From positions 75,066-139,065 of the forward strand of contig CALXTO010000001.1 in the NCBI GenBank assembly GCA_944391425.1: 64,000 bases of DNA, read 5' to 3'. The notes beneath the pieces were generated by a model, which searched no databases, had not been told where the DNA came from, and worked only from the letters and a program-made list of their open reading frames with translations. This stretch comes from an uncultured Alphaproteobacteria bacterium. GTDB lineage: Bacteria; Pseudomonadota; Alphaproteobacteria; RF32; CAG-239. Shown here in pieces: positions 8,135 through 56,236 of the stretch. The position numbers and the translations under genes are program-made. Every line of letters starts with the position of its first letter. Within the stretch, counting starts at the first letter, position 1.

Positions 8135-10624
8135 TTAGAATTTATATTTTGCGTTGAGCAAACCGCTATGATCGGTGTAATCCTCACGGAAGCGGCCTTC
8201 ATACCCGACGGACATTTCGACATCGTCATTGACGTCTGCCGTCAGGCTGGCGCCGACTTCAACGCCGAAGCGATCCAAAGCTTCGCCCTCAACGCTGTAT
8301 GCAGCGCCATTGGCCAGCGTAACGACGGAATTGGCGTCGTCGTTTGTCAGGTCATAAGTCATGGCTACCCGCGCTTCAGGACGGAGGCTCATGCCGTTTT
8401 CCAAAGCAAAATCTTTTCCTGCTTTGGCACCGATAACACCGGTTAAGATATCAGACTTATTGCCGGAAACATGGTTGCCCATACTATCGGTATAAGATTT
8501 CTGATTGATGTTAACATATCTTAATCCGGCTTCCGGTGTAACGTTGACACCGCCAACCAGCATATCATACCCGGCCATGGCCTGCAAACCGAAGCTGTCT
8601 ACATCATACGAAGCGTTTTTGACGCTGTTTTTCTCGTCATAATCACCCCAAGAGTAGTTGGCAATACCGTTGATATACCAATCGGCCGGTTTGTATTCCC
8701 CGTAAACAATCGCGGAATGCGTGTCGACATCGGTTTTGCGATTGTCAGTATCAATATCCGTATTGGTATAAGCATAACCGACACCGACTTTGACTGCATC
8801 AGTAACTTGTTTTTCGGCACCGCCGGCAAAACCGTAACTGTCGGCATCAAAACCGTTAACCTTTTTATCCAGCTCGGTTTTGTTAATCAGTCCCTGAGCC
8901 CATACGGCTCCGTTTTCAAACGGAGTATCGCCGGAAGACATTCCCTGCTGTGCTGCAGAGAGGCCGCCGCTCAAACGTGTACCGACGACATTTGCGATTT
9001 GCGTATTGTGGGCCACCATTGTCGACTGAGCAAAGGAAGACGTATCGACAGACAATTGATCCACAACTTTCAAACCGGCGGCAACCTCTTCGGGATTATC
9101 AGACTGCAGCAAAGCCGTTGCCGTTGAAGCAACATTGTTAAAAGCCGTATTTTCGGCAGGAGCTTTTCCGCCGGCTAAAACGGCCTGAACGGCATTAGCC
9201 TGGTTACTGTTTGCTCCGGTAGAAGCGGCAATTTCATCTCCGGCTTTTTGTTCAACAATCAGGCTTTTGTTGTCTTCTCCGACGGCAAGATTATACAAAT
9301 TGTTGTCCTGAGCCAAAACCCAGCCGACTTTATCGGCATCAATTTCTTTACCGTAGGTTTCCGTATTGCTGACGGTTTTATCAATATAAGATATGTTTCC
9401 GTCGGTGATGAAATTATGGGTTCCGTCAGCCGTTCCCAAGGCAATCGTCGGTTTTAGATTTACCTTGCCTTCAAGGTTGACGTTACCGGCAATTTGTCCG
9501 CCTTTGCTGCCGTCATAATAAAAAGCCAAAGTAGATCCGTCCATGAAGCGGGCAAAATCATTACCCTGGAACTGTCCGCCGGAAATCGTCAGCGTGTTTT
9601 GTCCGAGATCCAAAGTCGATCCCTTGTTGACCTTGGCGCCGCCAACCTCTGCATCATCTTGCAAGACCAAGTTTCCAACCGCACCGCTCTTGCTGCCAAG
9701 AACCAGGTCATTGGCTTTAAAGGCTCTATCGGCGGTAAGGCTGCCGCCGTTGCTGACCATAATCTGAGCTGCGTTAATATCTCCGGTAACCGCAGACTTT
9801 AAACTATGCGCATTGTTAAAATACAAATTGACATTATCAACGTCACCGTCGATTTTTGATTGTGCCGTATCCATATTTACTTCTGTGTTGGTAACCATTA
9901 ATCCGGTATCGGCATTTCCTACAAGATTGGCATTGATTGTACCTGAGTTGTTGATAACAGTTTGAGATTCTGCATCGGTAATATCCATAAAGATTGAACC
10001 TTTATCCGGCGCATCACCGCTGGTGTCTACAATGCCGAAAGAAGAATTTTCACCAACATTCAAAGTTGCATGAAGCAAACCGATGCCGCCGTCTTTGGTA
10101 TTGACTGTATTGGTTCCGGAGGCGTTGATTGTCTGGTTCTTTCCGCGTATATCCAAAGCTCCGGCCGTTTCAACGTTAACCGTGGTGTTTTCGATGTTCA
10201 GTACCGGAGTTCTGAGTGTGTTTGTACCTCCACTGAAATTCAGAGTTGTGTTTTTGAAATCCATAGAATCGGCCGTAATGCTGTTTCCGTTCAAATTGGC
10301 AGTGCCTCCGGTTGTTTCAATTCCCGCTGCAGTGATTTCAGAGCCTTCCATATTTAACGTCGCTGTATCCGACATAATGAATTTACCGGTACCGCCATCT
10401 TCATCAGTGATGTCCACTTTTGTACCTTTGATACCCAAAGTAACATTTTCTTTTAAAGTGATGCTGTTGGCTTTGGTATCTTCCTGACTGTCAATGTTGT
10501 ATACTTCATTGGGATCATATCCGGGTGCTCCAGGCATAAACCAATCGCCCAATTCAAGCGCTTTGGCACTGCCGGCTAAAGTCAGGCCGACAATCGCTGT
10601 TGAAATAAGTAAAGTGTTTCTCAT
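8135..10624 (-). CDS. autotransporter outer-membrane protein (Thr/Asn/Gly-rich passenger plus C-terminal beta-barrel)
   Basis: 829 aa with a signal peptide and a repetitive T/N/G-rich passenger. The C-terminal roughly 270 aa show an alternating beta-strand pattern ending in ...LNAKYKF (terminal Phe). Confidence 0.85.
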   Translation of the reverse strand: MRNTLLISTAIVGLTLAGSAKALELGDWFMPGAPGYDPNEVYNIDSQEDTKANSITLKENVTLGIKGTKVDITDEDGGTGKFIMSDTATLNMEGSEITAAGIETTGGTANLNGNSITADSMDFKNTTLNFSGGTNTLRTPVLNIENTTVNVETAGALDIRGKNQTINASGTNTVNTKDGGIGLLHATLNVGENSSFGIVDTSGDAPDKGSIFMDITDAESQTVINNSGTINANLVGNADTGLMVTNTEVNMDTAQSKIDGDVDNVNLYFNNAHSLKSAVTGDINAAQIMVSNGGSLTADRAFKANDLVLGSKSGAVGNLVLQDDAEVGGAKVNKGSTLDLGQNTLTISGGQFQGNDFARFMDGSTLAFYYDGSKGGQIAGNVNLEGKVNLKPTIALGTADGTHNFITDGNISYIDKTVSNTETYGKEIDADKVGWVLAQDNNLYNLAVGEDNKSLIVEQKAGDEIAASTGANSNQANAVQAVLAGGKAPAENTAFNNVASTATALLQSDNPEEVAAGLKVVDQLSVDTSSFAQSTMVAHNTQIANVVGTRLSGGLSAAQQGMSSGDTPFENGAVWAQGLINKTELDKKVNGFDADSYGFAGGAEKQVTDAVKVGVGYAYTNTDIDTDNRKTDVDTHSAIVYGEYKPADWYINGIANYSWGDYDEKNSVKNASYDVDSFGLQAMAGYDMLVGGVNVTPEAGLRYVNINQKSYTDSMGNHVSGNKSDILTGVIGAKAGKDFALENGMSLRPEARVAMTYDLTNDDANSVVTLANGAAYSVEGEALDRFGVEVGASLTADVNDDVEMSVGYEGRFREDYTDHSGLLNAKYKF

Positions 10625-16330: not shown

Positions 16331-19300
16331 CTAATTCAGCTTATCCAGCGTTTTGGCCAAGATATAATAAAGTTTGCCGATGTCTGCGCCGGAAATAACC
16401 GAGAGCAGAATTCCCGAATGTTCATGCGTTTGCGCCTGCGAAATCAAAACCTCAAATTCCGACAGGTACGAACTGATGAGGTTGCGGAACTCGGCATTTT
16501 TTTCATATTCCTTACGTACGGCGGCAATCTGCTGTTTGCTCAGGTTTTTGGCCAGATAACGGACGAAAACCGCACTATCGCCGTTGTAATATTTTTTCCA
16601 TAAATCATCTTCATCTTTGGGATTAAAGACACGATTGATGTCAACGGAAATATTTTGCAGCTTTTCAATAATTGCGGCGGCTTTTTTAAGGAAGTCGTCA
16701 ATCTTCATGCCCTGATATCCGGAAGAAAGCTTTTTGAAAGCTTCATCGGCCTTTTTGGTTTGTTCACCAAGCAGTTTGACCTGGTTGCCGACAACATCGG
16801 TAAACTGGATAGACTGCTTGACAATGCCGTCGCCTTTATTGGCAAAATCCTGCCCCGTTTCGGCCAGATCTTTCATAACCAGGTTGACTTTGTTGATTGT
16901 CTCGTCCGCAGTTGCCACCAAAACATGTGACTGTTTGACAAAGACTTCGCCGGAAGAAAGAATTTCATTGGAAATCCGTTCGGCGTTTGCCGCGGCTTCG
17001 CTGATGGAAGCACGCAGTTTGTCTCCCGAATTCTCAAAATGGGCGGCGCTGATACGGGTTGCTTCTTCCATCTGCAGGCCGAGATTTTTCAGATCCTGCC
17101 CCAATGCCTTGACTTTGTCATAAGCAAGATTGGCGCGGTCGGAAAGCGCGTTTGAGGTATCATTCAAAACCGTATTGAAACAATCGACGAGTTTGCGGGT
17201 ATCTTCCGATATTTTGACCATTTTATCGCTTTGCGCCGAAATAAGACTGTTAATCTCATAAACGCCGCTGCTGGTTTCGGCTGTGACGGTATTGAAGCCG
17301 GCGATATATTTTTCATAGTCCTTAAATACACCGCCCAAATTTTCGACCGAATGATGAATGGCCGCGTCCAAATCCTCGCTGTACTGACTCAGCGACAAAT
17401 TGACCTGTTCCAGATTTTTCATGGAAGATTTGGAAACCTTGGCAATGTCTTCTCCGGCTTTGATCATGCGATCGCCGAGTACGTCAAATTCGTAGGCAAA
17501 CTTGGTGGAAGCCTCAAAAATATCGCCGGTATTGTTTTTGAAAGCGTCGTTAATTTCCTTCATCTTCTGGGCAACGTCATTGGTGGCGTCCGACAGATAT
17601 TTATATTGCTGGGCAAGCGAGGCTTCGCTCAGACGCGCCTGGGTTGCCAACGTATTGGCAACTTCGGTCAGGTTTTCTTTTTGCTCGGACAAAACCTTGC
17701 CGATGTCTTCTGACTGGGTTTTGGTTTTAATGATAGAAACGTCTATGTTTTTAATATGTTCGTCCAGCAGTTTGACAACATTCGACGTTTCTTTGGAGAG
17801 TTCACCCTGAGCAGATGAAAGCTTGGAACAGCTGTCTAAAATTCCTTTGGACGCTTCCGTACTGTCAGTTTTAACCTGCTTTACCGTATTGGTGAAACGC
17901 GTGATGTTGTCCTGAACCCGGTTGGCAATGCTGTTGAAATTTGTCGTAATTTCCGTAACCATTTTATTGACTGCGGTATTTTTGGCGCTGATGAGCTCCT
18001 CAATTTCCGACAGGCGGTCAATGGAACGATGACTGTTGTTAACCACGGACTCCGTGTGGCGGTTGGTATCTTCTTCAAGCATGACCATCCGGGAGAAAAC
18101 CTTATCCGCGCTTTGTTCAATAACCGCAATCTGCTTTTTCAAAGCTTCGCTCATCGTTTCCGTATTATCGGCAATTTTGTCGCACAAGTTATAGAACTCG
18201 TTTTCCTGCCGCTTAAACAAAACATGGAGAGCCGCCGCCTTATCGTCCAGACTTTGGGCAACGTCAGCGACATAGCCCGCCGCCGCTTTGGAAACAGAAT
18301 TAAGCGACTGGCTCTGGTTTTCAAATGCGGAAACAGATTGATTCAGACTCTCTTCAGCCGAAGAGGTAACGTCGTTAACAGCTTTAATCTGGCGTTCCAG
18401 AATGCTGTCGACCATGTTGGCACGGTCGGCTATGCTTTGCGAAAGTACATCCATATTCTGCGACTGCGCCATCAGGGTATTCTCAAACTGCGTTACCTTG
18501 GCCAGAGTCCGGTTGACGCTGTCATCAAACATGTTTGACTGCTCTGCTAAATTGTCGTTGATGGCTTTGCTCTTATTGATAACCTCATTGCAGGAAGCCA
18601 GCATGACACCGAGATTGCTCTTGAGCTTTTCGACCGTAACCGACGCGTCGTTTTCCAAAGAGGCGGAAACTGCCGACAGTTCTTCAATCTGGCGTTTGAG
18701 CTCAGCTTTGATGTCCTCAACTTTGTTGACCGAATTGGTAATATTTTTCTGCTGTTGGGCCAAAGAAGCCTCGCTGATCTGGCTTTGGGCAACCACCAGA
18801 GAAGAAGCCTCGGTTAAAGACGTCGCATACTTATTCATGTTTTCCGCCACGTTATTCATATCGATAATGGAGGAATCCGATTGGATTTTGATATGTTCGG
18901 CAGAATGTTTGACTTCTTCGTTGAGTGCGGCAATCTGCAAAGAAACATTGTTTATCGTGTCATTGACGTGTTTATGGCGCGCCAGCAATTCTTCCGCCGC
19001 AGCCGTAATCTTGTCCATGGCATCGCTGTTCAGGCGGTCCAGGTCGGCGGTTTTTTCCTGCAGGGTTTCAATATAAGAAACGATGTCGTCATTGGCGGCA
19101 GCTGATTTCTCTCCGATTGCATTGGCGCTCAGGGCCAAAGTATCGTCAACACGCTGCATTGCTTCGGCTGCCTGCTGAGAAACCATGTTCAGGTTTGCAA
19201 CCTGGGTAGCCACGCTTTCTTCCAGATTGCTGCTTCTGACCATCAGACGATCAATTTCCTGAGCGATGTTTTCGCCGTGTTTGGCGAATTTCTGAATCAC

Positions 19301-20512
19301 CCCGTCAGCCCGTTGATCCAAAGCGTTCATAAAGTCCAGAATCTCGTGGTTGTGTTTAGCTAAAGCCCCGTCGACTTTTTTGATTTGCGCGTCAACCGAT
19401 GTATCCAGACCTTCCAAGCCCTTGGCAAGGTTGCCGTTGATTATATTCAGATTGTCTGCGGCATGCTTGCCGAGCTCGTCGATTTTACCGCGCATCATAT
19501 TGCCGCTGGACGCCAGAACCTGTTCCAGTTTTGCGCTGTGGCTGTCAACGGCATTCTCCAGACTGACGACCTCGGATGCAACGGCTTTCTTTATCATGTT
19601 GCAGTTTTCAATTGCCGATTGGGAAACCTGCTGCAGCACATTGGTCTGCCCTTCCAGCATTTCCACCACTTTGGAAAGGCCTGCGCCGGCCTCTTCATTA
19701 TATTGCTGCAACAGCTCATTGGCACGCGCAATATCGCGGTTGCTGGACGAGGCAATATTATTGAGCAGTTCCGCAGAAGTCTTGATCTCCTTCAACCGGG
19801 GCAAAAGTTTATCAAACAGTCCGTTCATGCTGCTCTCAATTTCATCGGCGCCGGAAACGAACTGGCGGTTCAATCCGGCAAACGTTTCTGCCGAGGCAGC
19901 CGCCTTATCCGATATTGTTTCAAAATTTTTGAGCAGAAACTTCACGCCTTCGCTCAATTCAACAATCGTTTTGGAGGAATAAGTATCTAGAGTGCCGATT
20001 AGTTTGGAAAAGTCTTCAATGTTGCTTTTGATGCCGTCTTTTATTAAAGCTGTTTGTTCGGTTGCCGTTTTGGTGGCCTGCTGAAGCTCCACCACTTGGG
20101 AACGGATGGCGTCGGCCATGGCCTTGGCCGTCTGAGGTGCGCCGTCTTCCGGGTAAACCAGTTGGTTCATATAAGCACGCAGAAATTTAGCCTCTTGTTT
20201 GAAAGAAGTGCCACGGTCAATGTAGGCCATGACAACCCAAATAATCGCCAGCGGCAGCGTAATCCCCGCCAAAAAGCCGCCAAACTCGTCCGGCATCATC
20301 AGAAACAGGTTCGACCAGCCGAAAAACTGAGTGATATAAATCAGAACAACAGCAAACCAAACCACACTGACTCCCACCATCAGCCGGTGCAGATTGTTGT
20401 TCAACCAAGACTGTTTTTCTTCAATCGCGGCATAATTTGGTTCTTCATTCATAAATTGCGGAAGATTGGTGCTAGGTACGGCTTTGCGGCTCTCACCAGT
20501 TTGTTCTGACAT
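16331..20512 (-). CDS. very large membrane-anchored coiled-coil protein (TipN/GPR-like architecture), function unknown
   Basis: 1393-aa uninterrupted ORF. There are two N-terminal hydrophobic helices (LMVGVSVVWFAVVLIYITQFF and FLAGITLPLAIIWVVMAYI). About 1100 aa of S/N/A/E/K/Q-rich helical sequence follow, with internal duplication (...SEASLAQQ... twice). The C-terminal domain of about 150 aa looks globular (LWKKYYNGDSAVFVRYL...GKLYYILAKTL). Confidence 0.85.
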   Translation of the reverse strand: MSEQTGESRKAVPSTNLPQFMNEEPNYAAIEEKQSWLNNNLHRLMVGVSVVWFAVVLIYITQFFGWSNLFLMMPDEFGGFLAGITLPLAIIWVVMAYIDRGTSFKQEAKFLRAYMNQLVYPEDGAPQTAKAMADAIRSQVVELQQATKTATEQTALIKDGIKSNIEDFSKLIGTLDTYSSKTIVELSEGVKFLLKNFETISDKAAASAETFAGLNRQFVSGADEIESSMNGLFDKLLPRLKEIKTSAELLNNIASSSNRDIARANELLQQYNEEAGAGLSKVVEMLEGQTNVLQQVSQSAIENCNMIKKAVASEVVSLENAVDSHSAKLEQVLASSGNMMRGKIDELGKHAADNLNIINGNLAKGLEGLDTSVDAQIKKVDGALAKHNHEILDFMNALDQRADGVIQKFAKHGENIAQEIDRLMVRSSNLEESVATQVANLNMVSQQAAEAMQRVDDTLALSANAIGEKSAAANDDIVSYIETLQEKTADLDRLNSDAMDKITAAAEELLARHKHVNDTINNVSLQIAALNEEVKHSAEHIKIQSDSSIIDMNNVAENMNKYATSLTEASSLVVAQSQISEASLAQQQKNITNSVNKVEDIKAELKRQIEELSAVSASLENDASVTVEKLKSNLGVMLASCNEVINKSKAINDNLAEQSNMFDDSVNRTLAKVTQFENTLMAQSQNMDVLSQSIADRANMVDSILERQIKAVNDVTSSAEESLNQSVSAFENQSQSLNSVSKAAAGYVADVAQSLDDKAAALHVLFKRQENEFYNLCDKIADNTETMSEALKKQIAVIEQSADKVFSRMVMLEEDTNRHTESVVNNSHRSIDRLSEIEELISAKNTAVNKMVTEITTNFNSIANRVQDNITRFTNTVKQVKTDSTEASKGILDSCSKLSSAQGELSKETSNVVKLLDEHIKNIDVSIIKTKTQSEDIGKVLSEQKENLTEVANTLATQARLSEASLAQQYKYLSDATNDVAQKMKEINDAFKNNTGDIFEASTKFAYEFDVLGDRMIKAGEDIAKVSKSSMKNLEQVNLSLSQYSEDLDAAIHHSVENLGGVFKDYEKYIAGFNTVTAETSSGVYEINSLISAQSDKMVKISEDTRKLVDCFNTVLNDTSNALSDRANLAYDKVKALGQDLKNLGLQMEEATRISAAHFENSGDKLRASISEAAANAERISNEILSSGEVFVKQSHVLVATADETINKVNLVMKDLAETGQDFANKGDGIVKQSIQFTDVVGNQVKLLGEQTKKADEAFKKLSSGYQGMKIDDFLKKAAAIIEKLQNISVDINRVFNPKDEDDLWKKYYNGDSAVFVRYLAKNLSKQQIAAVRKEYEKNAEFRNLISSYLSEFEVLISQAQTHEHSGILLSVISGADIGKLYYILAKTLDKLN

Positions 20513-26551: not shown

Positions 26552-28189
26552 TTATAAAAGCCGACTTTTGTCAATTGCCGCTTTAATAAACGACACGAAC
26601 AAAGGCGCCGGAGCAAACGGTCGGGATTTCAATTCGGGATGGAATTGAACGCCGATAAACCAGGGATGATCCGGAATTTCAACAATTTCAGGCAGTTTGC
26701 CGTCCGGCGATTTTCCAGAAATCAGCATCCCGCCCATACGCAGCTGCGGTTCATATTTCATATTTACTTCATAACGGTGGCGATGCCGCTCGGAAATTTT
26801 ATCCGTTCCATAAACTTTGGCAGCCAATGAATTGGGATTCAACACACATTCATAAGCCCCAAGGCGCATGGTTCCTCCCAAATCTCCGTCTTTATGGCGA
26901 ATCTGCCGCGCTCCTTCTTTGTCCCATTCGGTCATCAGCCCTACGACAGGTTCGCAATCAGGCATGAACTCCGTCGTACCGGCGTTTTTGATGTTTAATA
27001 CATTGCGCATAGTTTCAATAACCGCCATCTGCATGCCGAAACAAATGCCGAGGAACGGAATTTTATGTTCGCGCGCGTAGCGGATGGCATTGATTTTGCC
27101 TTCGGTGCCGCGTTGCCCGAAACCGCCGGGAACCAAAATGGCGCTGACATCGTTCAAATGGTCTGCCGGATTTTCTTTTTCTAAAAGTTCCGAGTCAATC
27201 CATTTGATTTTGACCTTGTATTTATTGGCTATTCCGCCATGAGTCAAAGCTTCGTTCAACGACTTGTAAGCTTCCAGAAGCTGGGTATATTTGCCGACAA
27301 CAGCCACCCTGACTTCGCCTTCGGGATGACGCAGGGTTTCGACAATGTTTTCCCATTTGCTTAAATCCGGCTCCCGATCGCAAGGAATACCAAAATGTCT
27401 GCAGACCTGTCTGTCCATTCCTTCATGAGAATATGCCACGGGAACCTGATAAATACTGCCGACATCAAGGGCAGTGATGACATTTTCCTCGCGAATATTA
27501 CAAAACAGCGCTATTTTGCGCTTTTCATTTTGAGGAATCGGCATCTGCGAACGGCAAAGCAGCATATCCGGCTGAATTCCGTATTCCTGAAGCTTTTTGA
27601 CCGAATGCTGAGTCGGTTTAGTTTTCAATTCTCCCGCCGTCGGGATATAAGGCAGCAGCGTCACGTGGATAAACATTGCGCGTTCGCGCCCCAGGTCATA
27701 TGCGACCTGACGGATAGCCTCCAGATAAGGCTGACCTTCAATATCACCGACTGTGCCGCCTATTTCGCACAAAACAAAATCCTCGTCCGTAATGTCTGAT
27801 AAAATAAAATCTTTGATTTCGTTAGTGACATGGGGAACAACCTGAATGGTAGCGCCCAAATAATCGCCGTGACGTTCTTTGTCAATCACGCGCTGATATA
27901 TTTTGCCAGTGGTAATACTGTCCGTTTTATGACAGGCAACTCCGGAAAAACGCTCGTAATGTCCGAGATCCAAATCGGTTTCAGCACCGTCATCGGTTAC
28001 AAACACCTCACCGTGCTGATACGGGCTCATGGTTCCCGGGTCGACGTTCAGATAAGGGTCGAGTTTACGCAGCCTCACCTTAAACCCCCTCGCCTGCAAA
28101 ATGGAAGAAAGCGAGGCGGATGCCAAGCCTTTTCCCAAAGAGGAAACCACACCGCCGGTGATAAAGATATATTTTGTATTTTCAGACAT
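26552..28189 (-). CDS. pyrG: CTP synthase
   Basis: 545 aa. N-terminus [16 protein letters not shown] and a glutamine amidotransferase domain (GICFGMQ, HRHRYE). Confidence 0.97.
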
Positions 28190-50721: not shown

Positions 50722-53346
50722 ATGACTGTTACTGTTAAACAAATCAGAAACACTTATCTAGATTATTTTGCCAAACACGGGCATAAGATCATTCCATCGT
50801 CCTCTCTGGTTCCGGACAACGACCCTACCTTGATGTTCACCAACGCAGGAATGGTGCAATTCAAAAACATTTTCACCGGCAATGAAACCAGGGATTATAC
50901 CCGTGCGGCAACTTCCCAAAAATGCGTCCGTGCCGGTGGAAAACATAATGATCTTGATAATGTCGGCTATACGGTGCGTCACCATACTTTCTTTGAAATG
51001 CTCGGCAATTTTTCGTTCGGCGATTATTTTAAAGACGATGCCATCGCTTTTGCCTGGGAAGTCGTTACCAAAGAATTCGGGCTGCCCAAAGACAGGCTGG
51101 CCGTTACGATTTTTCATGACGACGACGAAGCTTACGCTATCTGGAAAAAAGTCGCCGGCCTGCCTGACGACCGTATTATCCGTATTGCAACCAAAGATAA
51201 CTTCTGGCAAATGGGCGACACCGGTCCCTGCGGTCCCTGTTCGGAAATTTTTTACGATCACGGCCCTGAAGTCTGGGGCGGCCTGCCAGGAACACCGGAA
51301 GAAGACGGCGACCGCTGGATTGAAATCTGGAATCTGGTTTTCGACCAGTTTGAAGATTTGCCCGACGGTAGCCGAATTCCGCTGAAACGTCCGTCGATTG
51401 ATACCGGCATGGGACTGGAGAGAATTTCCGCCATTTTACAGGGCGTTCACTCTAACTATGAAATTGATATTTTTCAGAACCTGATTAAAGCGATTGCCGA
51501 TATTGCCAACTCAGATCCGAATGGGCCGTTAAAGGCTTCTCATAATGTCATTGCCGACCATTTGCGTTCGACAGCTTTTCTGATTGCCGACGGTGTGCTG
51601 CCGTCCAATGAAGGACGCGGCTACGTCCTGCGCCGGATTATGCGCCGGGCCATGCGCCATGCGCACTTGCTGGGCGTCAAAGAACCGATGATGTATAAGC
51701 TTTTGCCTGCTCTGCAGAAGGAAATGGGTGATACTTATCCCGAATTATACCAGGCGGAAACATTGATTAAAGAAACCATTCGGACAGAAGAAGAACGCTT
51801 TATCAAAACCATGGAAAAAGGGTTGCGCCTGTTGGACGATGAAGCCGCCGGCCTTCAAAAAGGCGACACTTTTCCCGGCGAGACGGCCTTCAAGCTCTAT
51901 GACACTTACGGTTTTCCGCTGGATTTGACCCAAGATGCGCTTAAGCTTAAGGGAATTAAAGTCGACACCGACGGCTTTGACAAAGCCATGGCGCGCCAAA
52001 AAGCCGAAGCCCGCAAAAGCTGGGCAGGTTCAGGTGATGCCGGGACCGAGAAAATATGGTTTGAACTGCAAGACAAACTCGGAGCCGGCGAGTTTTTGGG
52101 GTATCATACTCTCAAAACAGACTGCCGGATTACGGCTTTGGTGCAAAACGGCCAAGAAGTCCCTGAAGTGAGCGCCGGCGAATTTTTCCTGCTGGCCAAT
52201 CAGACGCCTTTTTACGGCGAAATGGGCGGGCAAGTCGGTGATAAAGGCATAATCTGCGGCGCCGATTTTGAAATCGAAGTTACGGATACCAAGAAAAAAC
52301 TTGACGGTTTGTATGTACATGTCTGCAAAATGGTTAAAGGCTGCGTTAAAAACGGTGATTTTGCCAACTTCCGCGTTAACGAAGAAAACCGCCGCGCCAT
52401 TGAGGCTAATCATACGGTCACACACTTGCTCCACCGAGCCTTGCAAAATAAGTACGGTAAAACCGTTACTCAAAAAGGTTCCATGGTGGCGGCAGACAGG
52501 ATGCGCTTTGATATTGCCTACCCCAAGCAAATTCATGAAGATGAACTGAGGGAGTTGGAAGATGCCGTCAATAAAATGATTCGCGCCAATTATCCCGTCA
52601 CTGCCAATATTATGTCGCAAGATGAAGCAATCAAGGCCGGAGCCATGGCTCTGTTCGGCGAAAAATACGGAGATGAAGTCCGCGTTATATGCGTCGGCGA
52701 CGGCGTATCTATGGAACTTTGCGGCGGAACACACGTCCGGCGCACGGGGGATATCGGCTACTTCAATATTGTCAGCGAAGGCGCCATTGCCGCTGGTGTC
52801 CGTCGTCTGGAGTGCGTTACCGGACACGGCGCTGAAAATTTTGTTCAGGGAATCGAAGATAAACTTCATCGCGTTGGAAATAGTTTAAAAGCCAGTTTCA
52901 ATGATATAGAAGCACGAGTTAATCAATTACTTGAAGAAAAGAAAAAGCTTGAAGCACAAGTTTTTGAACTGAAAAAGAAGCTGGTCAGCAACAAAGCCGC
53001 CGATAATCCGGATAATTTTGAAAGTGTTAACGGTATCCGTTTTGTTGCTAAAATTTTGGAAAATATCCAAACAAAAGAACTAAAAGCTTTTATTGACGAG
53101 ATTAAAGCTCAATATCCGCAAAATCTGGTTGCGGCACTACTCACCAACAACGATGGCAAAGCATCCGTCGTTATCGGGGTCAGCGACGATTTGAAAGAAA
53201 AATATCCGGCGGTTGAGCTGGTTAAACACGTTGCGCCTTTTGTCGGTGCCCAAGGCGGCGGCGGACGGCCGGATATGGCGCAGACCGGCGGACCAGATGT
53301 CGGCCGGTTAGAAGAAGCCATTGAGGCTTTGCGGCAAGCATTGTAA
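50722..53346 (+). CDS. alaS: alanine--tRNA ligase
   Basis: 874 aa with class II motifs, the HxxxH / CxxxH editing motifs (HTVTHLL, CGGTHV) and a C-terminal DHHA1-like GGGGRPDMAQ. Confidence 0.98.
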   Translation: MTVTVKQIRNTYLDYFAKHGHKIIPSSSLVPDNDPTLMFTNAGMVQFKNIFTGNETRDYTRAATSQKCVRAGGKHNDLDNVGYTVRHHTFFEMLGNFSFGDYFKDDAIAFAWEVVTKEFGLPKDRLAVTIFHDDDEAYAIWKKVAGLPDDRIIRIATKDNFWQMGDTGPCGPCSEIFYDHGPEVWGGLPGTPEEDGDRWIEIWNLVFDQFEDLPDGSRIPLKRPSIDTGMGLERISAILQGVHSNYEIDIFQNLIKAIADIANSDPNGPLKASHNVIADHLRSTAFLIADGVLPSNEGRGYVLRRIMRRAMRHAHLLGVKEPMMYKLLPALQKEMGDTYPELYQAETLIKETIRTEEERFIKTMEKGLRLLDDEAAGLQKGDTFPGETAFKLYDTYGFPLDLTQDALKLKGIKVDTDGFDKAMARQKAEARKSWAGSGDAGTEKIWFELQDKLGAGEFLGYHTLKTDCRITALVQNGQEVPEVSAGEFFLLANQTPFYGEMGGQVGDKGIICGADFEIEVTDTKKKLDGLYVHVCKMVKGCVKNGDFANFRVNEENRRAIEANHTVTHLLHRALQNKYGKTVTQKGSMVAADRMRFDIAYPKQIHEDELRELEDAVNKMIRANYPVTANIMSQDEAIKAGAMALFGEKYGDEVRVICVGDGVSMELCGGTHVRRTGDIGYFNIVSEGAIAAGVRRLECVTGHGAENFVQGIEDKLHRVGNSLKASFNDIEARVNQLLEEKKKLEAQVFELKKKLVSNKAADNPDNFESVNGIRFVAKILENIQTKELKAFIDEIKAQYPQNLVAALLTNNDGKASVVIGVSDDLKEKYPAVELVKHVAPFVGAQGGGGRPDMAQTGGPDVGRLEEAIEALRQAL

Positions 53347-53347
53347 C

Positions 53348-53381
53348 AAAATCCCCTCCGGTTTGAGGAGGGGATTTTTTT
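53348..53381 (+). terminator. intrinsic terminator of alaS
   Basis: AAATCCCCTCC-ggtttga-GGAGGGGATTT plus TTTT. Confidence 0.85.
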
Positions 53382-53619
53382 GAAAAAAATATTGACAAAT
53401 TTCCATAAAGGTGTTTTTATCATCTTACTTTCTTATTTTTGTTATATCATTTTGTTGATTTATCCCGTATTAAATACCGGATTAAATATAAGTTTTTCAT
53501 CCACAAGATTCATTCATACCATGATCAGGGGCAGCTTGTACGTTATACTTCTTTTGCCATCTTGTTAAGCAAGTTTCCATACCAGCTCCTGTTTTTTAGA
53601 TGAAAAACTAAATTATATT

Positions 53620-53695
53620 GTCCTGAAGTTTTGCCGTGAATCTCGTTACCTTAGGAAAGTACGGGCTCACGTGAGGCAAACTTCAGGACTTTTTA
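53620..53695 (+). ncRNA. candidate small RNA / hairpin module 1
   Basis: Long hairpin GTCCTGAAGTTTTGCC ... GGCAAACTTCAGGAC with extra inner pairing (GTGA/TCAC), followed by TTTTT. Confidence 0.3.
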
Positions 53696-53697
53696 TG

Positions 53698-53783
53698 AAG
53701 CTCTGATCCCCCTCGTTATTTCGTGTACATGTGAATTATCGAAGAGTTGTGCTGTGGTACATGTGCGGGGATCGAGCTTTTTT
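53698..53783 (+). ncRNA. candidate small RNA / hairpin module 2
   Basis: Outer stem AAGCTCTGATCCCC ... GGGGATCGAGCTT followed by TTTTTT. The interior contains a duplicated GTACATGTG and a C-rich CCCCCTCG stretch. Confidence 0.3.
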
Positions 53784-53802
53784 ATTAGGTAAGTTATCAT
53801 TG

Positions 53803-53837
53803 AAAGCCCCTGCTGTGAAGCATGGGCTTTTTTTGCT
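53803..53837 (+). terminator. intrinsic terminator-like hairpin module 3
   Basis: AAAGCCC-ctgctgtgaagcat-GGGCTTT plus TTTTT. Confidence 0.5.
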
Positions 53838-53957
53838 TTTAAATATTTTTTTGTATATTTTGTCATTTTTAGCTTGCCGAATCGTTCATTATGTGTTTTA
53901 ATGCATGGTATCAAAAAGTACAATTAATTTTATTATTAACATTTAAAGCTTTTTGTT

Positions 53958-54302
53958 ATGAACACTAACAATAATAACAGAGTTCAAGCCTATATCATCG
54001 GCAAATTCCAAAAATTCGCTTGTCCCCGCGGCATCAAAATGGTTGATACTCCCTGTATCTGTACGGTTTCTATTTTCGGTAACCGGAAAAAGAAACAACA
54101 TATGGCGGCTCCGGCAACCGATGCCAAAGGAAATAACGGTTTCGTTATTAACCTCGGCGGCAAAAAGCTGAAATTCCTACCGGCTTCCAAAGCTAACGCT
54201 GTCCCACTGAAGAACGACCACATTGTCGAATGCGGACACATTAAAGGGCAGAAGCCGAAATTGGTGAAAAACAGGAGCGGCATTTCCTTCGCCACGGCGT
54301 AA
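53958..54302 (+). CDS. hypothetical protein (114 aa)
   Basis: It is the only sizeable plus-strand ORF between a candidate promoter (TTGCCG-17-TTTAAT, 53874-53902) and the strong terminator at 54350-54396. It has no clear RBS and no known motif. Confidence 0.4.
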   Translation: MNTNNNNRVQAYIIGKFQKFACPRGIKMVDTPCICTVSIFGNRKKKQHMAAPATDAKGNNGFVINLGGKKLKFLPASKANAVPLKNDHIVECGHIKGQKPKLVKNRSGISFATA

Positions 54303-54396: not shown

Positions 54397-54499
54397 GCAA
54401 TCGGCGTATTAGTTTTTCTGTGGAAAAGTTTTTCCTGTCTGTTGTCTGTCTTGGTAATGATTAATATATTGTCGATATAGGTAATCAAAGAGGACAACC

Positions 54500-56137
54500 A
54501 TGGATAAAGTAAGCCTGACCGTAAGTATGAGGAGCAATTTGCTGAGCCTGCAGAATATCAGCAGACAGGTTGATATTACCCAGAACAGATTATCCACCGG
54601 CAAAAAGGTCAATTCGGCAATTGACAATCCGTCCTCTTATTACACGGCGCGCAGTTTAAGCAACCGCGCTAATGATTTGGATGCTCTGCTTGACTCTATG
54701 GGACAGGCTGTTTCTACCATTAAGGCGGCGACCACATCTCTGGAAACGGCAGCGGATTTTCTGGAACAGGCCGCGGCGGTAGCGACGCAGGCGCTGGAAA
54801 GCGCTGAAAGAATTTATATTCGGCAACCAAGCGGCATCAGCGATGACGCGGACATCCGTGATACCAGCCTTTTTGACGGTCGCGCCAACACACAGGCGAT
54901 GTTGGATCAGATTGGTGCCGATGCTCTGGCAGCGACAGCGTGCAATCAGTTCTATGCGCCGGGCGTAGATAAAGATGATGCCAATTTCGGTCAGGGACAA
55001 TGGTATCTTCCCGCTGTTGGTGAGTTAATGGAAATGTATGGCGTTGATGTTTCAAATATGACTGGAGGCTATGGGCAAAATGGAGCAAATGGTAATACTA
55101 GAACATCCATTAATAATGCTCTTGCAGCTTTAAAAGATGCTGGTGTTGATTGCGCAACTTTAACAGATGGATATTATTGGTCTTCTTCTGAGTTTGACAG
55201 CAGTTACTCTTGGCAAGTCGGTATGCTTAGTGGAGACCGAAATACTCACAATAAAGATTTTGCCTATTTTGTTAGGTGTTTCTCATATTTAGAAAATAAA
55301 TTCAACCCGACGGACGCAGATTTCACGCCCAAAATCGGCGATGTGATGTACTCGGATTTAACCTACGGTTCGGCCGATGATTATGACGGCAGCAAAACTG
55401 CCGTTGGCATTGTTACTTGGATTTCGGAAGACGGTAAATCCGCTAAAATCGTCAACCTTAAAGATTTGCAATTTAGTTCTAATAATACAGTCGGCAATTT
55501 TAATCCCGACGATCCTTATACCGGTACTTCCGCTACAACTTTTCACACTACCAGTGCTAAATCCCATGAGGACGTCACCGGTATAGACAATTATAATTCC
55601 AGCCAGTTTCTGGTCGCCATTCAGGAAGCTATAGCGAAAAGTTCTTTGCCCTTGGCAGAAGAAGAACAACAGTATCAGAATATTTTGTCTCAGTATGATT
55701 CCCTAATCAAAGACAGCGGTTATAAAGGCGTGAATTTGCTGCAAGAACAGGATTTGAAAGTAACGTTTAACGAAAGCCACAGCGCCTGGTTGGATGTTAA
55801 AGGCAAAGATGCGTCTTCCGCCGCTCTGGGAATTAAAACTGTCGAATGGCAGACACAGGAAGACGTGGTTGCCGCCGTGAAAGAACTGACCGATGCCTTA
55901 AATAAAATCCGCAGTATGTCGGCGGAACTGGGCAGCTATTACAACATCGTGCTGAACCGTCAGGACTTTACCGAAAATTTAATTAACGTTCTGGAAGAAG
56001 GTGCAGATAAGTTAACCTTGGCGGACATGAACGAAGAAAGCGCCAACATGCTTGCTCTGCAAACCAGACAACAACTGGCAACCAATTCCCTCTCGCTCGC
56101 CTCCCAGGCCGCCCAGTCTATTTTGAGATTGTTCTAG
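54500..56137 (+). CDS. flagellin-family protein with DUF1566/Lcl-C-like domain inserted in the variable region
   Basis: Flagellin N-domain (LLSLQNISRQVDITQNRLSTGKKVNSAIDNPSSYYTARSL) and C-domain (...LALQTRQQLATNSLSLASQAAQSILRLF). The central roughly 280 aa carry the motifs QWYLPAVGELMEMY, GYYWSSSEF, SWQV and FAYFVRCF. RBS is AAGAGGA. Confidence 0.85.
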   Translation: MDKVSLTVSMRSNLLSLQNISRQVDITQNRLSTGKKVNSAIDNPSSYYTARSLSNRANDLDALLDSMGQAVSTIKAATTSLETAADFLEQAAAVATQALESAERIYIRQPSGISDDADIRDTSLFDGRANTQAMLDQIGADALAATACNQFYAPGVDKDDANFGQGQWYLPAVGELMEMYGVDVSNMTGGYGQNGANGNTRTSINNALAALKDAGVDCATLTDGYYWSSSEFDSSYSWQVGMLSGDRNTHNKDFAYFVRCFSYLENKFNPTDADFTPKIGDVMYSDLTYGSADDYDGSKTAVGIVTWISEDGKSAKIVNLKDLQFSSNNTVGNFNPDDPYTGTSATTFHTTSAKSHEDVTGIDNYNSSQFLVAIQEAIAKSSLPLAEEEQQYQNILSQYDSLIKDSGYKGVNLLQEQDLKVTFNESHSAWLDVKGKDASSAALGIKTVEWQTQEDVVAAVKELTDALNKIRSMSAELGSYYNIVLNRQDFTENLINVLEEGADKLTLADMNEESANMLALQTRQQLATNSLSLASQAAQSILRLF

Positions 56138-56236
56138 CAGAACGATTTTGAGTGCTGCCAGTGTCGCCTCCGGACGCTTGCCCGGCCTCACCCGCTTGGG
56201 TACGCCTCCGCACCGCTTCGGTGCGGCTGCGGTGTT

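Follow-up and report, generated by a model that had tools for sequence, protein, structure and literature searches.

A flagellin gene with a predicted lectin-like outer domain in an uncultured alphaproteobacterium, and retroelement cassettes beside its homologues in related lineages

The flagellin gene and its central insert

The DNA window analyzed here is a 64-kb stretch of a contig from an uncultured alphaproteobacterium (CALXTO010000001.1), and the subject of this study is a flagellin gene whose central part encodes a large folded insert similar to the Lcl_C/DUF1566 domains. The features of the gene, together with the retroelement cassettes found beside its homologues in related lineages, are listed in Table 1. 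The open reading frame (ORF) encodes 545 amino acids plus a stop, and the termini and internal motifs quoted in the first-pass annotation of this DNA were matched exactly. That annotation described the ends of the protein as flagellin D0/D1 segments, and so they are: both Pfam models score above their cut-offs (PF00669, 39.4 bits against 26.6; PF00700, 36.6 bits against 23). The top NCBIfam matches, reached via the termini, are models of long alphaproteobacterial flagellins, and the closest PDB entries by sequence are Caulobacter flagellins (phmmer E 7e-16). In the full-length AlphaFold2 model (all models were built from an 82-sequence homologue alignment), the terminal helices span residues 6-32 and 44-101 at the N-terminus and 453-544 at the C-terminus, and the top PDB match in Foldseek is the Caulobacter FljK filament 8uxj (E 5.7e-6, TM score 0.69 on the target). 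The identity of the protein as FlgL was considered and rejected, as the FlgL models score 27 bits against a cut-off of 127.

The N-terminal Flagellin_N region is 93-100% identical among close homologues. At the other end, residues 492-545 are 100% identical to those of a paralogue from the same sample, whereas the third codon positions are 56-67% identical; preservation of the protein while these positions diverged indicates purifying selection on the flagellin termini. The exact protein is also present on contigs of two samples in ENA (ERZ28614520 and ERZ28614613; SAMEA6814507 and SAMEA6814500). The reading that we favor as a whole, and consider probable, is that the gene encodes a genuine filament flagellin with a lectin-like outer domain.

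The mean predicted local distance difference test score (pLDDT) of the full-length model is 84.6, with low values at the D0 tips and values of 92-98 for the block of residues ~120-385. Since a Foldseek search with this model matched only flagellin cores, the insert (286 residues) was modelled alone, yielding a pLDDT of 95.9 and a predicted template modelling score (pTM) of 0.93. It is therefore predicted to be one compact unit, and the structure prediction suggested at first pass as a check on the insert returns a globular fold and no linker. The unit comprises two modules, A and B.

Several searches relate module A to domains that are C-type-lectin-like. The Lcl_C model (PF07603) aligns by its positions 39-115 of 117 with residues 162-260 (E 5e-6, 27.2 bits), and matches of this kind, likewise below the curated cut-off, occur in nine of ten relatives (range 20.0-32.8 bits), the tenth having none at E 0.001. 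In PHROGs, residues ~120-262 match the extreme C-terminal end of the phage family phrog_4245 (E 1.3e-11), and a profile of the insert matches the C-terminal domain (CTD) of the Legionella protein Lcl, 8q4e, at E 0.0049; the Lcl-CTD is C-type-lectin-like and binds glycosaminoglycans (PMC11162425). The top matches of the insert model in a Foldseek search of BFVD are gut-phage proteins (probability 0.96-1.0, E 6e-5 to 4e-2) with names such as DUF1566 domain-containing, FISUMP domain and Peptidase S74, and more weakly tail-fibre; for the predicted phage DUF1566 proteins the probability is 0.96-0.99, but the root-mean-square deviation is high, at 9-12 A. Given the E-value, the PHROGs match, the phage structures and a link via proteins that do pass the Lcl_C cut-off (below), we regard the homology of the insert to the Lcl_C/DUF1566 superfamily as established.

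When the insert was searched against 1.84 billion representative proteins, only 288 clusters matched at E <= 1e-3. The best non-flagellin matches are proteins of 1100-1840 amino acids (E 1e-197 to 1e-70, over query residues 18-272); of five that were scanned, four score above the Lcl_C cut-off, at 50.8-84.6 bits. They consist of tandem A-B-A-B arrays with two to four clear units, and these closest non-flagellin homologues share with the insert the whole 255-residue unit and its A-B register. Unlike the window protein, they have several tandem units, a signal peptide and no flagellin domains. Representatives are P0129, P0130, P0134, P0153, P0168 and P0219, and the N-termini that were read (P0129, P0130 and P0219) are signal-peptide-like. 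These giant proteins are presumably cell-surface adhesins.

Module B is highly conserved within the flagellin family and matches residues 257-303 of 4eps, a type V pilus protein of Bacteroides, a segment on the N-terminal side of the YWSS module of that protein; the insert profile as a whole matches 4eps at E 0.0039. Thus the order in 4eps is B-A, and five of the seven mapped proteins of 340-460 amino acids are also B-A, with A at the C-terminus, whereas the window flagellin (one unit) and the giants are A-B. The possible permutation noted at first pass for the second segment (IGDVMY...KIVNLKDL) reflects this genuine difference in module order.

Sequence variation was profiled over 19 homologues with more than 75% identity. 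Conservation is 90-100% in the D0/D1 core and in most of the insert scaffold, and the identity falls to 29-67% over residues 181-255, with a minimum of 29% at 241-255. The variable stretch keeps the scaffold residues SW, G.R, K and VRCF, and it is the positions between them that vary.

A dispersed family with a common upstream element

In all, 4128 homologues of the window flagellin were found. Among species-representative genomes 415 stretches match, the best 80 all coming from metagenome-assembled genomes (MAGs) of uncultured Alphaproteobacteria, Azospirillaceae or Proteobacteria. The survey of related genomes proposed at first pass for the same fusion thus revealed a large dispersed family in uncultured Alphaproteobacteria. 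For instance, the fetched loci alone of MAG CAKQMD01 hold 25 intact flagellin ORFs in addition to fragments that are split or lie at contig ends, and CALXUM01, among the closest MAGs, holds at least 10 flagellin pieces. Only a subset of the paralogues has the insert type of the window protein; others have other outer domains, and longer ones also bear a Pectate_lyase_5 'putative adhesive' domain above the Pfam cut-off. Frameshifts have split several of the paralogues in related MAGs. The expansion of flagellin genes is extreme across the fetched loci L003-L079, especially in CAKQMD01, and many contigs end inside flagellin genes.

Both samples that contain the window protein also contain paralogues 81-83% identical to it, again in non-flagellar contexts. 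By contrast with these positions, an 81%-identical homologue directly follows flgF-flgG-flgA-flgH-flaF, and the MAGs of relatives also encode fliK, flgD, flgE and fliF. At another locus (L068:12980-17412), in a MAG with dozens of long flagellins, FlbT is followed by three tandem short ones (358-402 amino acids in the ORF listing); the short proteins may form the core filament, the long ones being accessory variants of its surface.

The dispersed copies have an upstream element in common. Of the 51 flagellin genes analyzed, 16 have the motif TG[TA]GGAAAA 74-105 nt upstream and a seventeenth has it at -149, in four MAGs and the window, against a background of 0.035 per kb; its single occurrence in the 64 kb is TGTGGAAAAG at 54419. 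L082, which is the copy after flaF, has it at -80, as do L096 and L097, and the conserved TGTGGAAAAG element also stands upstream in L006, L041, L042 and others. The element could be a promoter or operator, and because it is common to the dispersed flagellin copies they look like one regulon. The TGTGGAAAAG element was rejected by eye as a sigma-54 or sigma-28 promoter, the spacing and the -12/-10 elements being unfitting. A sigma-70-like site follows it, and since sites of this type are not enriched over shuffled sequences in the upstream region, this match is weak evidence. A Shine-Dalgarno-like AGAGGA precedes the gene.

The window gene sits between alaS and dut-thyA-folA. The other genes of the window are non-flagellar and mostly housekeeping (TatD, holB, tmk, an autotransporter, HflX, ParC/GyrA, PyrG, ProRS, alaS, dut, thyA, folA), and neither a second flagellin nor any other flagellar gene was found in the 64 kb, in agreement with the first reading of the locus. 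The label 'orphan' given to the flagellin is correct only for its position in these 64 kb, as the gene is one of a large, dispersed family that has a common upstream motif and one close member in a flagellar cluster. Of the flanking features reported together with it, the AT-rich DNA is real (the upstream kilobase 53001-54000 has a GC content of 0.384, against typically 0.40-0.51 in the window), whereas the 'stacked terminators' are not above chance, a consensus scan finding four against 3.3 expected from shuffles.

Some further features of the window were noted. The AT-rich spacer between alaS and the flagellin contains a basic 114-amino-acid ORF (53958..54302, plus strand) that is called as a gene on the ENA contigs; it was rejected as a FlaF/FlbT-like regulator, since it has no Pfam match, occurs only on same-species contigs and is not beside the paralogues. 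Between the convergent flagellin and dut genes lies a GC-rich hairpin without a T-run (CCGCACC...GGTGCGG, 56208-56226), which may be a shared non-canonical terminator. A second ORF of 545 amino acids (26552..28189) encodes CTP synthase, and the equal length is coincidental. On the minus strand, an 829-amino-acid protein (8135-10624) with a C-terminal autotransporter beta-domain (162.8 bits) is a candidate surface or adhesion protein, and a 1393-amino-acid ORF (16331-20512) has weak coiled-coil-type Pfam matches (ATG17_like and Leu_zip), both under the cut-offs.

Retroelement cassettes in related lineages and the window copy

All fetched loci were searched with the variable stretch of the window gene. 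In L027, L028 and L038 this identified a repeat of ~115 nt, rich in AAC/AAT, 1.8-2.2 kb upstream of the flagellin. This repeat has the properties of the template repeat (TR) of a diversity-generating retroelement (DGR), with the corresponding variable region (VR) in the flagellin: all TR/VR mismatches are at TR adenines (14/14 in L027, 18/18 in L028, and 18 in the core of L038). Between TR and flagellin are encoded a reverse transcriptase (RT; RVT_1 61-65 bits, above cut-off; phrog_1423, 303 bits) and a bAvd protein (55-60 bits, above cut-off; PHROG 'Avd protein of DGR'). The same RT-Avd-flagellin order was found in L018, and RT homologues led to two further lineages with RT-bAvd-flagellin. 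The cassette of L027 is flanked by fliK-flgD-flgE on one side and the flagellin on the other, and fliF is found downstream. Two more matches to the unmutated TR core occur on metagenome contigs, each followed by an RT; a phage origin of the cassette was rejected, as the TR core has no match in viral contigs.

One locus (L085-L089), with an identical RT, was recovered from five samples and has four different VRs. Compared with the common TR, the mismatches are adenine-only in four of the five samples (18/18, 16/16, 16/16 and 17/17), and in the fifth 19 of 23 are at adenines, with a 3-nt length difference. These VR differences are direct evidence that the DGR is active in natural populations. 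The VR is internal, at ~57-62% of the gene, and not C-terminal. Targets in trans are indicated by MAG JAHALQ, where a flagellin on contig 6 has a VR that also agrees with the TR on contig 8, adenines accounting for 16 of the 17 mismatches. The DGR-linked flagellin of the same MAG (L038:9994-12071) is in two ORFs, as its VR contains a length difference of 1 nt, which could reflect a genuine frameshift or an assembly error caused by VR heterogeneity in the population. We conclude that there is strong support for a diversification of flagellin outer domains by chromosomal DGRs in sister lineages of gut Alphaproteobacteria, in which the VRs are internal, targets lie also in trans and one cassette stands within a flagellar cluster.

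Residues 227-264 of the window protein, which end module A and are the most variable part of the protein, can be aligned codon by codon to the L027, L028 and L038 TRs and VRs and are position by position homologous to the verified VRs. A DGR inside the window was rejected: the 64 kb contain no TR-like copy of nt 54800-55700 (blastn) and no homologue of the RT and Avd of the relatives (phmmer). The five TRs seen in relatives have 10-16 non-adenine mismatches to this stretch, which is the cross-species baseline, and at its 3' end the stretch reads TTC TCA TAT TTA, against TTC CAG CTT TTA in the TRs and DGR-linked VRs. As the VR lengths of same-sample paralogues differ by one codon, one TR cannot serve all of them; a TR shared by the window copy and its same-sample paralogue was rejected on these lengths and on differing synonymous sites. 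A DGR from its own samples was also sought through RT homologues, and none of the contigs so retrieved came from ERZ28614520 or ERZ28614613. Compared with P0001, from a 97%-identical strain, the window protein has two residue differences in the VR-equivalent and 13 elsewhere. Folding predicted no hairpin downstream of the VR in either the window or the DGR-linked copies, which makes this feature uninformative.

Because the window lacks TR, RT and Avd, the 3' boundary and VR length differ, the VR hardly changes from one strain to another and two samples contain the identical protein, we rate the window flagellin as most likely a fixed-specificity member of a family that is DGR-diversified in sister lineages.

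Table 1. Features of the window flagellin gene and retroelement cassettes at related loci
Feature	Location	Strand	Evidence or content
Flagellin gene	54500..56137	+	ORF listing, Pfam, NCBIfam, Caulobacter PDB matches, exact protein on ENA contigs
Flagellin_N region, N-terminal D0/D1 helices, residues 12-101	54533..54802	+	PF00669, AlphaFold2 helices
Outer-domain insert, residues 103-388, compact A-B unit	54806..55663	+	AlphaFold2, giant-protein homology
Module A, C-type-lectin-like, Lcl_C/DUF1566-like, residues 122-264	54863..55291	+	Pfam, phrog_4245, BFVD Foldseek, 8q4e
VR-equivalent, residues 227-264 (WSSSE...VRCFSYL)	55178..55291	+	Codon-for-codon alignment to TRs/VRs of relatives
Module B, conserved, beta-rich, residues 271-345 (PKIGDVMY...NFNPDDPY)	55310..55534	+	Family conservation, 4eps match
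Flagellin_C region, C-terminal D1/D0 helix, residues 462-545	55883..56134	+	PF00700, helix 453-544
Conserved upstream motif TGTGGAAAAG, 81 nt before start codon	54419..54428	+	Motif scan of flagellin upstream regions
Sigma-70-like promoter match, TTGTCT-17 nt-TATATT	54442..54470	+	Consensus scan, 9/12 matches; weak
DGR cassette upstream of flagellin	L027:7556-11817		TR, RT, bAvd; between flgE and flagellin
DGR cassette upstream of flagellin	L028:8084-12085		TR, RT, bAvd
DGR cassette upstream of flagellin	L038:7704-12071		TR, RT, bAvd
DGR cassette upstream of flagellin	L018:3-3562		RT-Avd-flagellin order
DGR cassette upstream of flagellin	L085-L089:5850-10131		TR, RT, bAvd; five samples
DGR cassette upstream of flagellin	L093:5841-10169		TR, RT, bAvd

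Proposed role, alternatives and related systems

We suggest the following scheme. The flagellar type III system would export the conserved D0/D1 termini, which would polymerize into the filament core, and the central 286 residues would form a two-module outer domain, displayed in many copies along the filament surface, with module A as the lectin-like (Lcl_C/DUF1566 type) part and module B as its beta-rich partner. The most likely role of this domain would be to bind a surface ligand, for example a glycan, of host mucus, of particles or of other cells, with the specificity set by the hypervariable loop (residues 227-262). The dispersed paralogues differ mainly in that loop, and since they share the upstream element with the flagellar-cluster copy, they would represent a germline repertoire of alternative filament surfaces, possibly under common regulation. 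In the sister lineages a chromosomal DGR (TR, RT and bAvd) rewrites the loop by adenine-specific mutagenic retrohoming; the window copy bears no sign of present rewriting and would keep its specificity.

Several observations weigh against this scheme. The working flagellum in this bacterium is deduced from relatives, the 64-kb window itself having no other flagellar gene. The DUF1566/Lcl_C assignment made at first pass stands as significant homology and as a folded domain, but it fails the Pfam threshold: the Lcl_C score is under the curated cut-off of 34.9 bits in every flagellin tested, including the window protein. A Foldseek search of PDB with the insert gives no significant solved structure (best E 0.09), with 8q4e ranking second and matching over 60 columns only (E 0.23, probability 0.60). 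Finally, variation is also found in patches outside the stretch covered by the TR (residues 175-219, 342-356 and 447-461), and such patchiness fits a general diversification of the surface as well as a tuning of specificity. Outer domains of flagellins can have purely structural or antigenic roles.

Three alternatives were weighed. The window flagellin might be a current DGR target, rewritten in trans at residues 227-262 by a TR-RT-Avd cassette elsewhere in the genome, probably beside a paralogue. The 64 kb are the only visible part of this genome and a DGR elsewhere is possible, which counts against fixed specificity; moreover, trans targeting is known in the family from the two contigs of JAHALQ, the variable codons of the window stretch stand at the AAY codons of the TRs with which it aligns, and its 5' boundary, TGGTCTTCTTCTGAG, resembles the one conserved in TRs and VRs. 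We nevertheless consider such rewriting improbable, given that the flanks of three close paralogues or homologues, like the window, contain no TR, RT or Avd, that all five TRs seen differ from the window stretch at non-adenine positions, that its 3' end is unlike the TR/VR end and paralogue VR lengths are one codon apart, and that the VR is near-identical in the 97%-identical strain and the protein the same in two samples, whereas the VRs of the active locus are scrambled at similar divergence.

A different role for the same domain is about equally unlikely: it would bind no specific ligand and serve as a variable antigenic or phage-receptor coat, or as a mechanical stabilizer, with the paralogues and the DGR serving to escape antibodies or flagellotropic phages rather than to adhere. 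Antigenic variation typically involves many interchangeable paralogues, and the differences seen here extend over several surface patches beyond the lectin loop; furthermore, outer domains of other flagellins are reported to affect motility via domain-domain contacts (PMC8931119). However, the relatives of the insert are binding modules, namely Lcl (PMC11162425), the 4EPS-like type V pilus proteins (10.1101/2024.11.15.621889) and the phage tail-fibre/DUF1566 proteins, longer paralogues add the pectate-lyase-like 'adhesive' domain, and DGRs are described in the literature mainly as diversifying ligand-binding proteins; besides, coat and binding roles are not mutually exclusive. That the gene is a relic, a displaced copy no longer expressed or assembled, appears very improbable, although it stands between alaS and dut-thyA-folA without flagellar neighbours and frameshifts interrupt several paralogues in MAGs of relatives: its ORF is intact, the termini are conserved in protein while synonymous sites diverged, the upstream motif of the cluster-resident copy and the Shine-Dalgarno-like site are kept, and the identical protein persists in two samples. 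Of these readings we thus prefer an assembled, ligand-binding filament flagellin of fixed specificity.

Flagellin is both the propeller and a major molecule seen by host immunity and phages. If the favored reading is true, with a lectin-like domain on each of its subunits the flagellum would become an adhesin of very high avidity. Two routes of surface variation are combined in these gut bacteria, a large germline repertoire of dispersed flagellins and, in several lineages, a retroelement that rewrites the loop. If the window flagellin and its dispersed paralogues were instead trans targets of a DGR elsewhere in the genome, the bacterium could rewrite the binding loop of its filament on demand, as a programmable adhesin or decoy. 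DGR biology, whose focus has so far been the tail fibres of phages, pili and surface lipoproteins, is now linked to the flagellum, in a system in which the gut ligands of such domains, and the way in which an internal, domain-inserted VR serves as a retrohoming target, can be tested.

As assumed at first pass, the searchable literature yielded no description of a flagellin with a DUF1566 insert, and the text of a 2024 survey of flagellin outer domains (PMC11532411) mentions neither DUF1566 nor lectins. In DGR papers DUF1566 is the commonest target domain, and 'flagellin' occurs once, without detail, in a list of BLAST annotations of DGR targets (PMC6642488). Nothing in the same literature combines flagell* with mutagenic retrohoming or with template repeat, and the main text of the global DGR survey does not contain 'flagell'. 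Both parts are already known as kinds, the flagellin outer domain and the C-type-lectin-like DGR target, and it is their combination, a lectin-like flagellin family of dozens of dispersed genes that is hypermutated by chromosomal DGRs in relatives, that appears to be undescribed.

Functional outer domains are exemplified by the enzymatic flagellins of the flagellinolysin type. With the flagellins bearing elaborate outer domains (PMC11532411) the window protein shares a conserved D0/D1 core and a foreign folded domain between the D1 segments, presumably displayed on the surface; it differs in that its insert is an Lcl_C/DUF1566-type A-B unit, hypermutated by a retroelement in relatives. The closest solved cores belong to the multi-flagellin system FljJ-O of Caulobacter (8uxj, 6xl0), which likewise has several flagellin genes per genome and FlaF/FlbT-type regulators adjoining flagellins. 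The solved Caulobacter flagellins, at ~270-273 amino acids, are too short for an outer domain, whereas here dozens of dispersed copies have large and differing ones.

With the Legionella Lcl-CTD and PF07603 (8q4e; PMC11162425), Lcl being a glycosaminoglycan-binding adhesin, the insert shares the ordered motifs A..C, W.LP..EL, YWSS and VR. It differs in its score under the cut-off, with about two-thirds of the model covered and a local Foldseek match to 8q4e, in the extra module B after the domain, and in being inserted in a flagellin, while Lcl is a trimer with a collagen stalk. Finally, the cassettes of the relatives resemble those of the C-type-lectin DGR targets, such as Mtd of the Bordetella phage, TvpA of Treponema and the 4EPS-like proteins of Bacteroides (10.1101/2024.11.15.621889), in the TR-RT-bAvd set, the adenine-only mismatches, the AAY-rich TRs, a VR that ends a lectin-like module and hosts that are gut bacteria. 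They differ from these systems, the window copy by standing without a cassette, and the relatives by a flagellin as the target, a VR that is internal, whereas those of Bacteroides are reported to be uniformly C-terminal (10.1101/2024.11.15.621889), and, in L027, a cassette that lies within the flagellar cluster itself.

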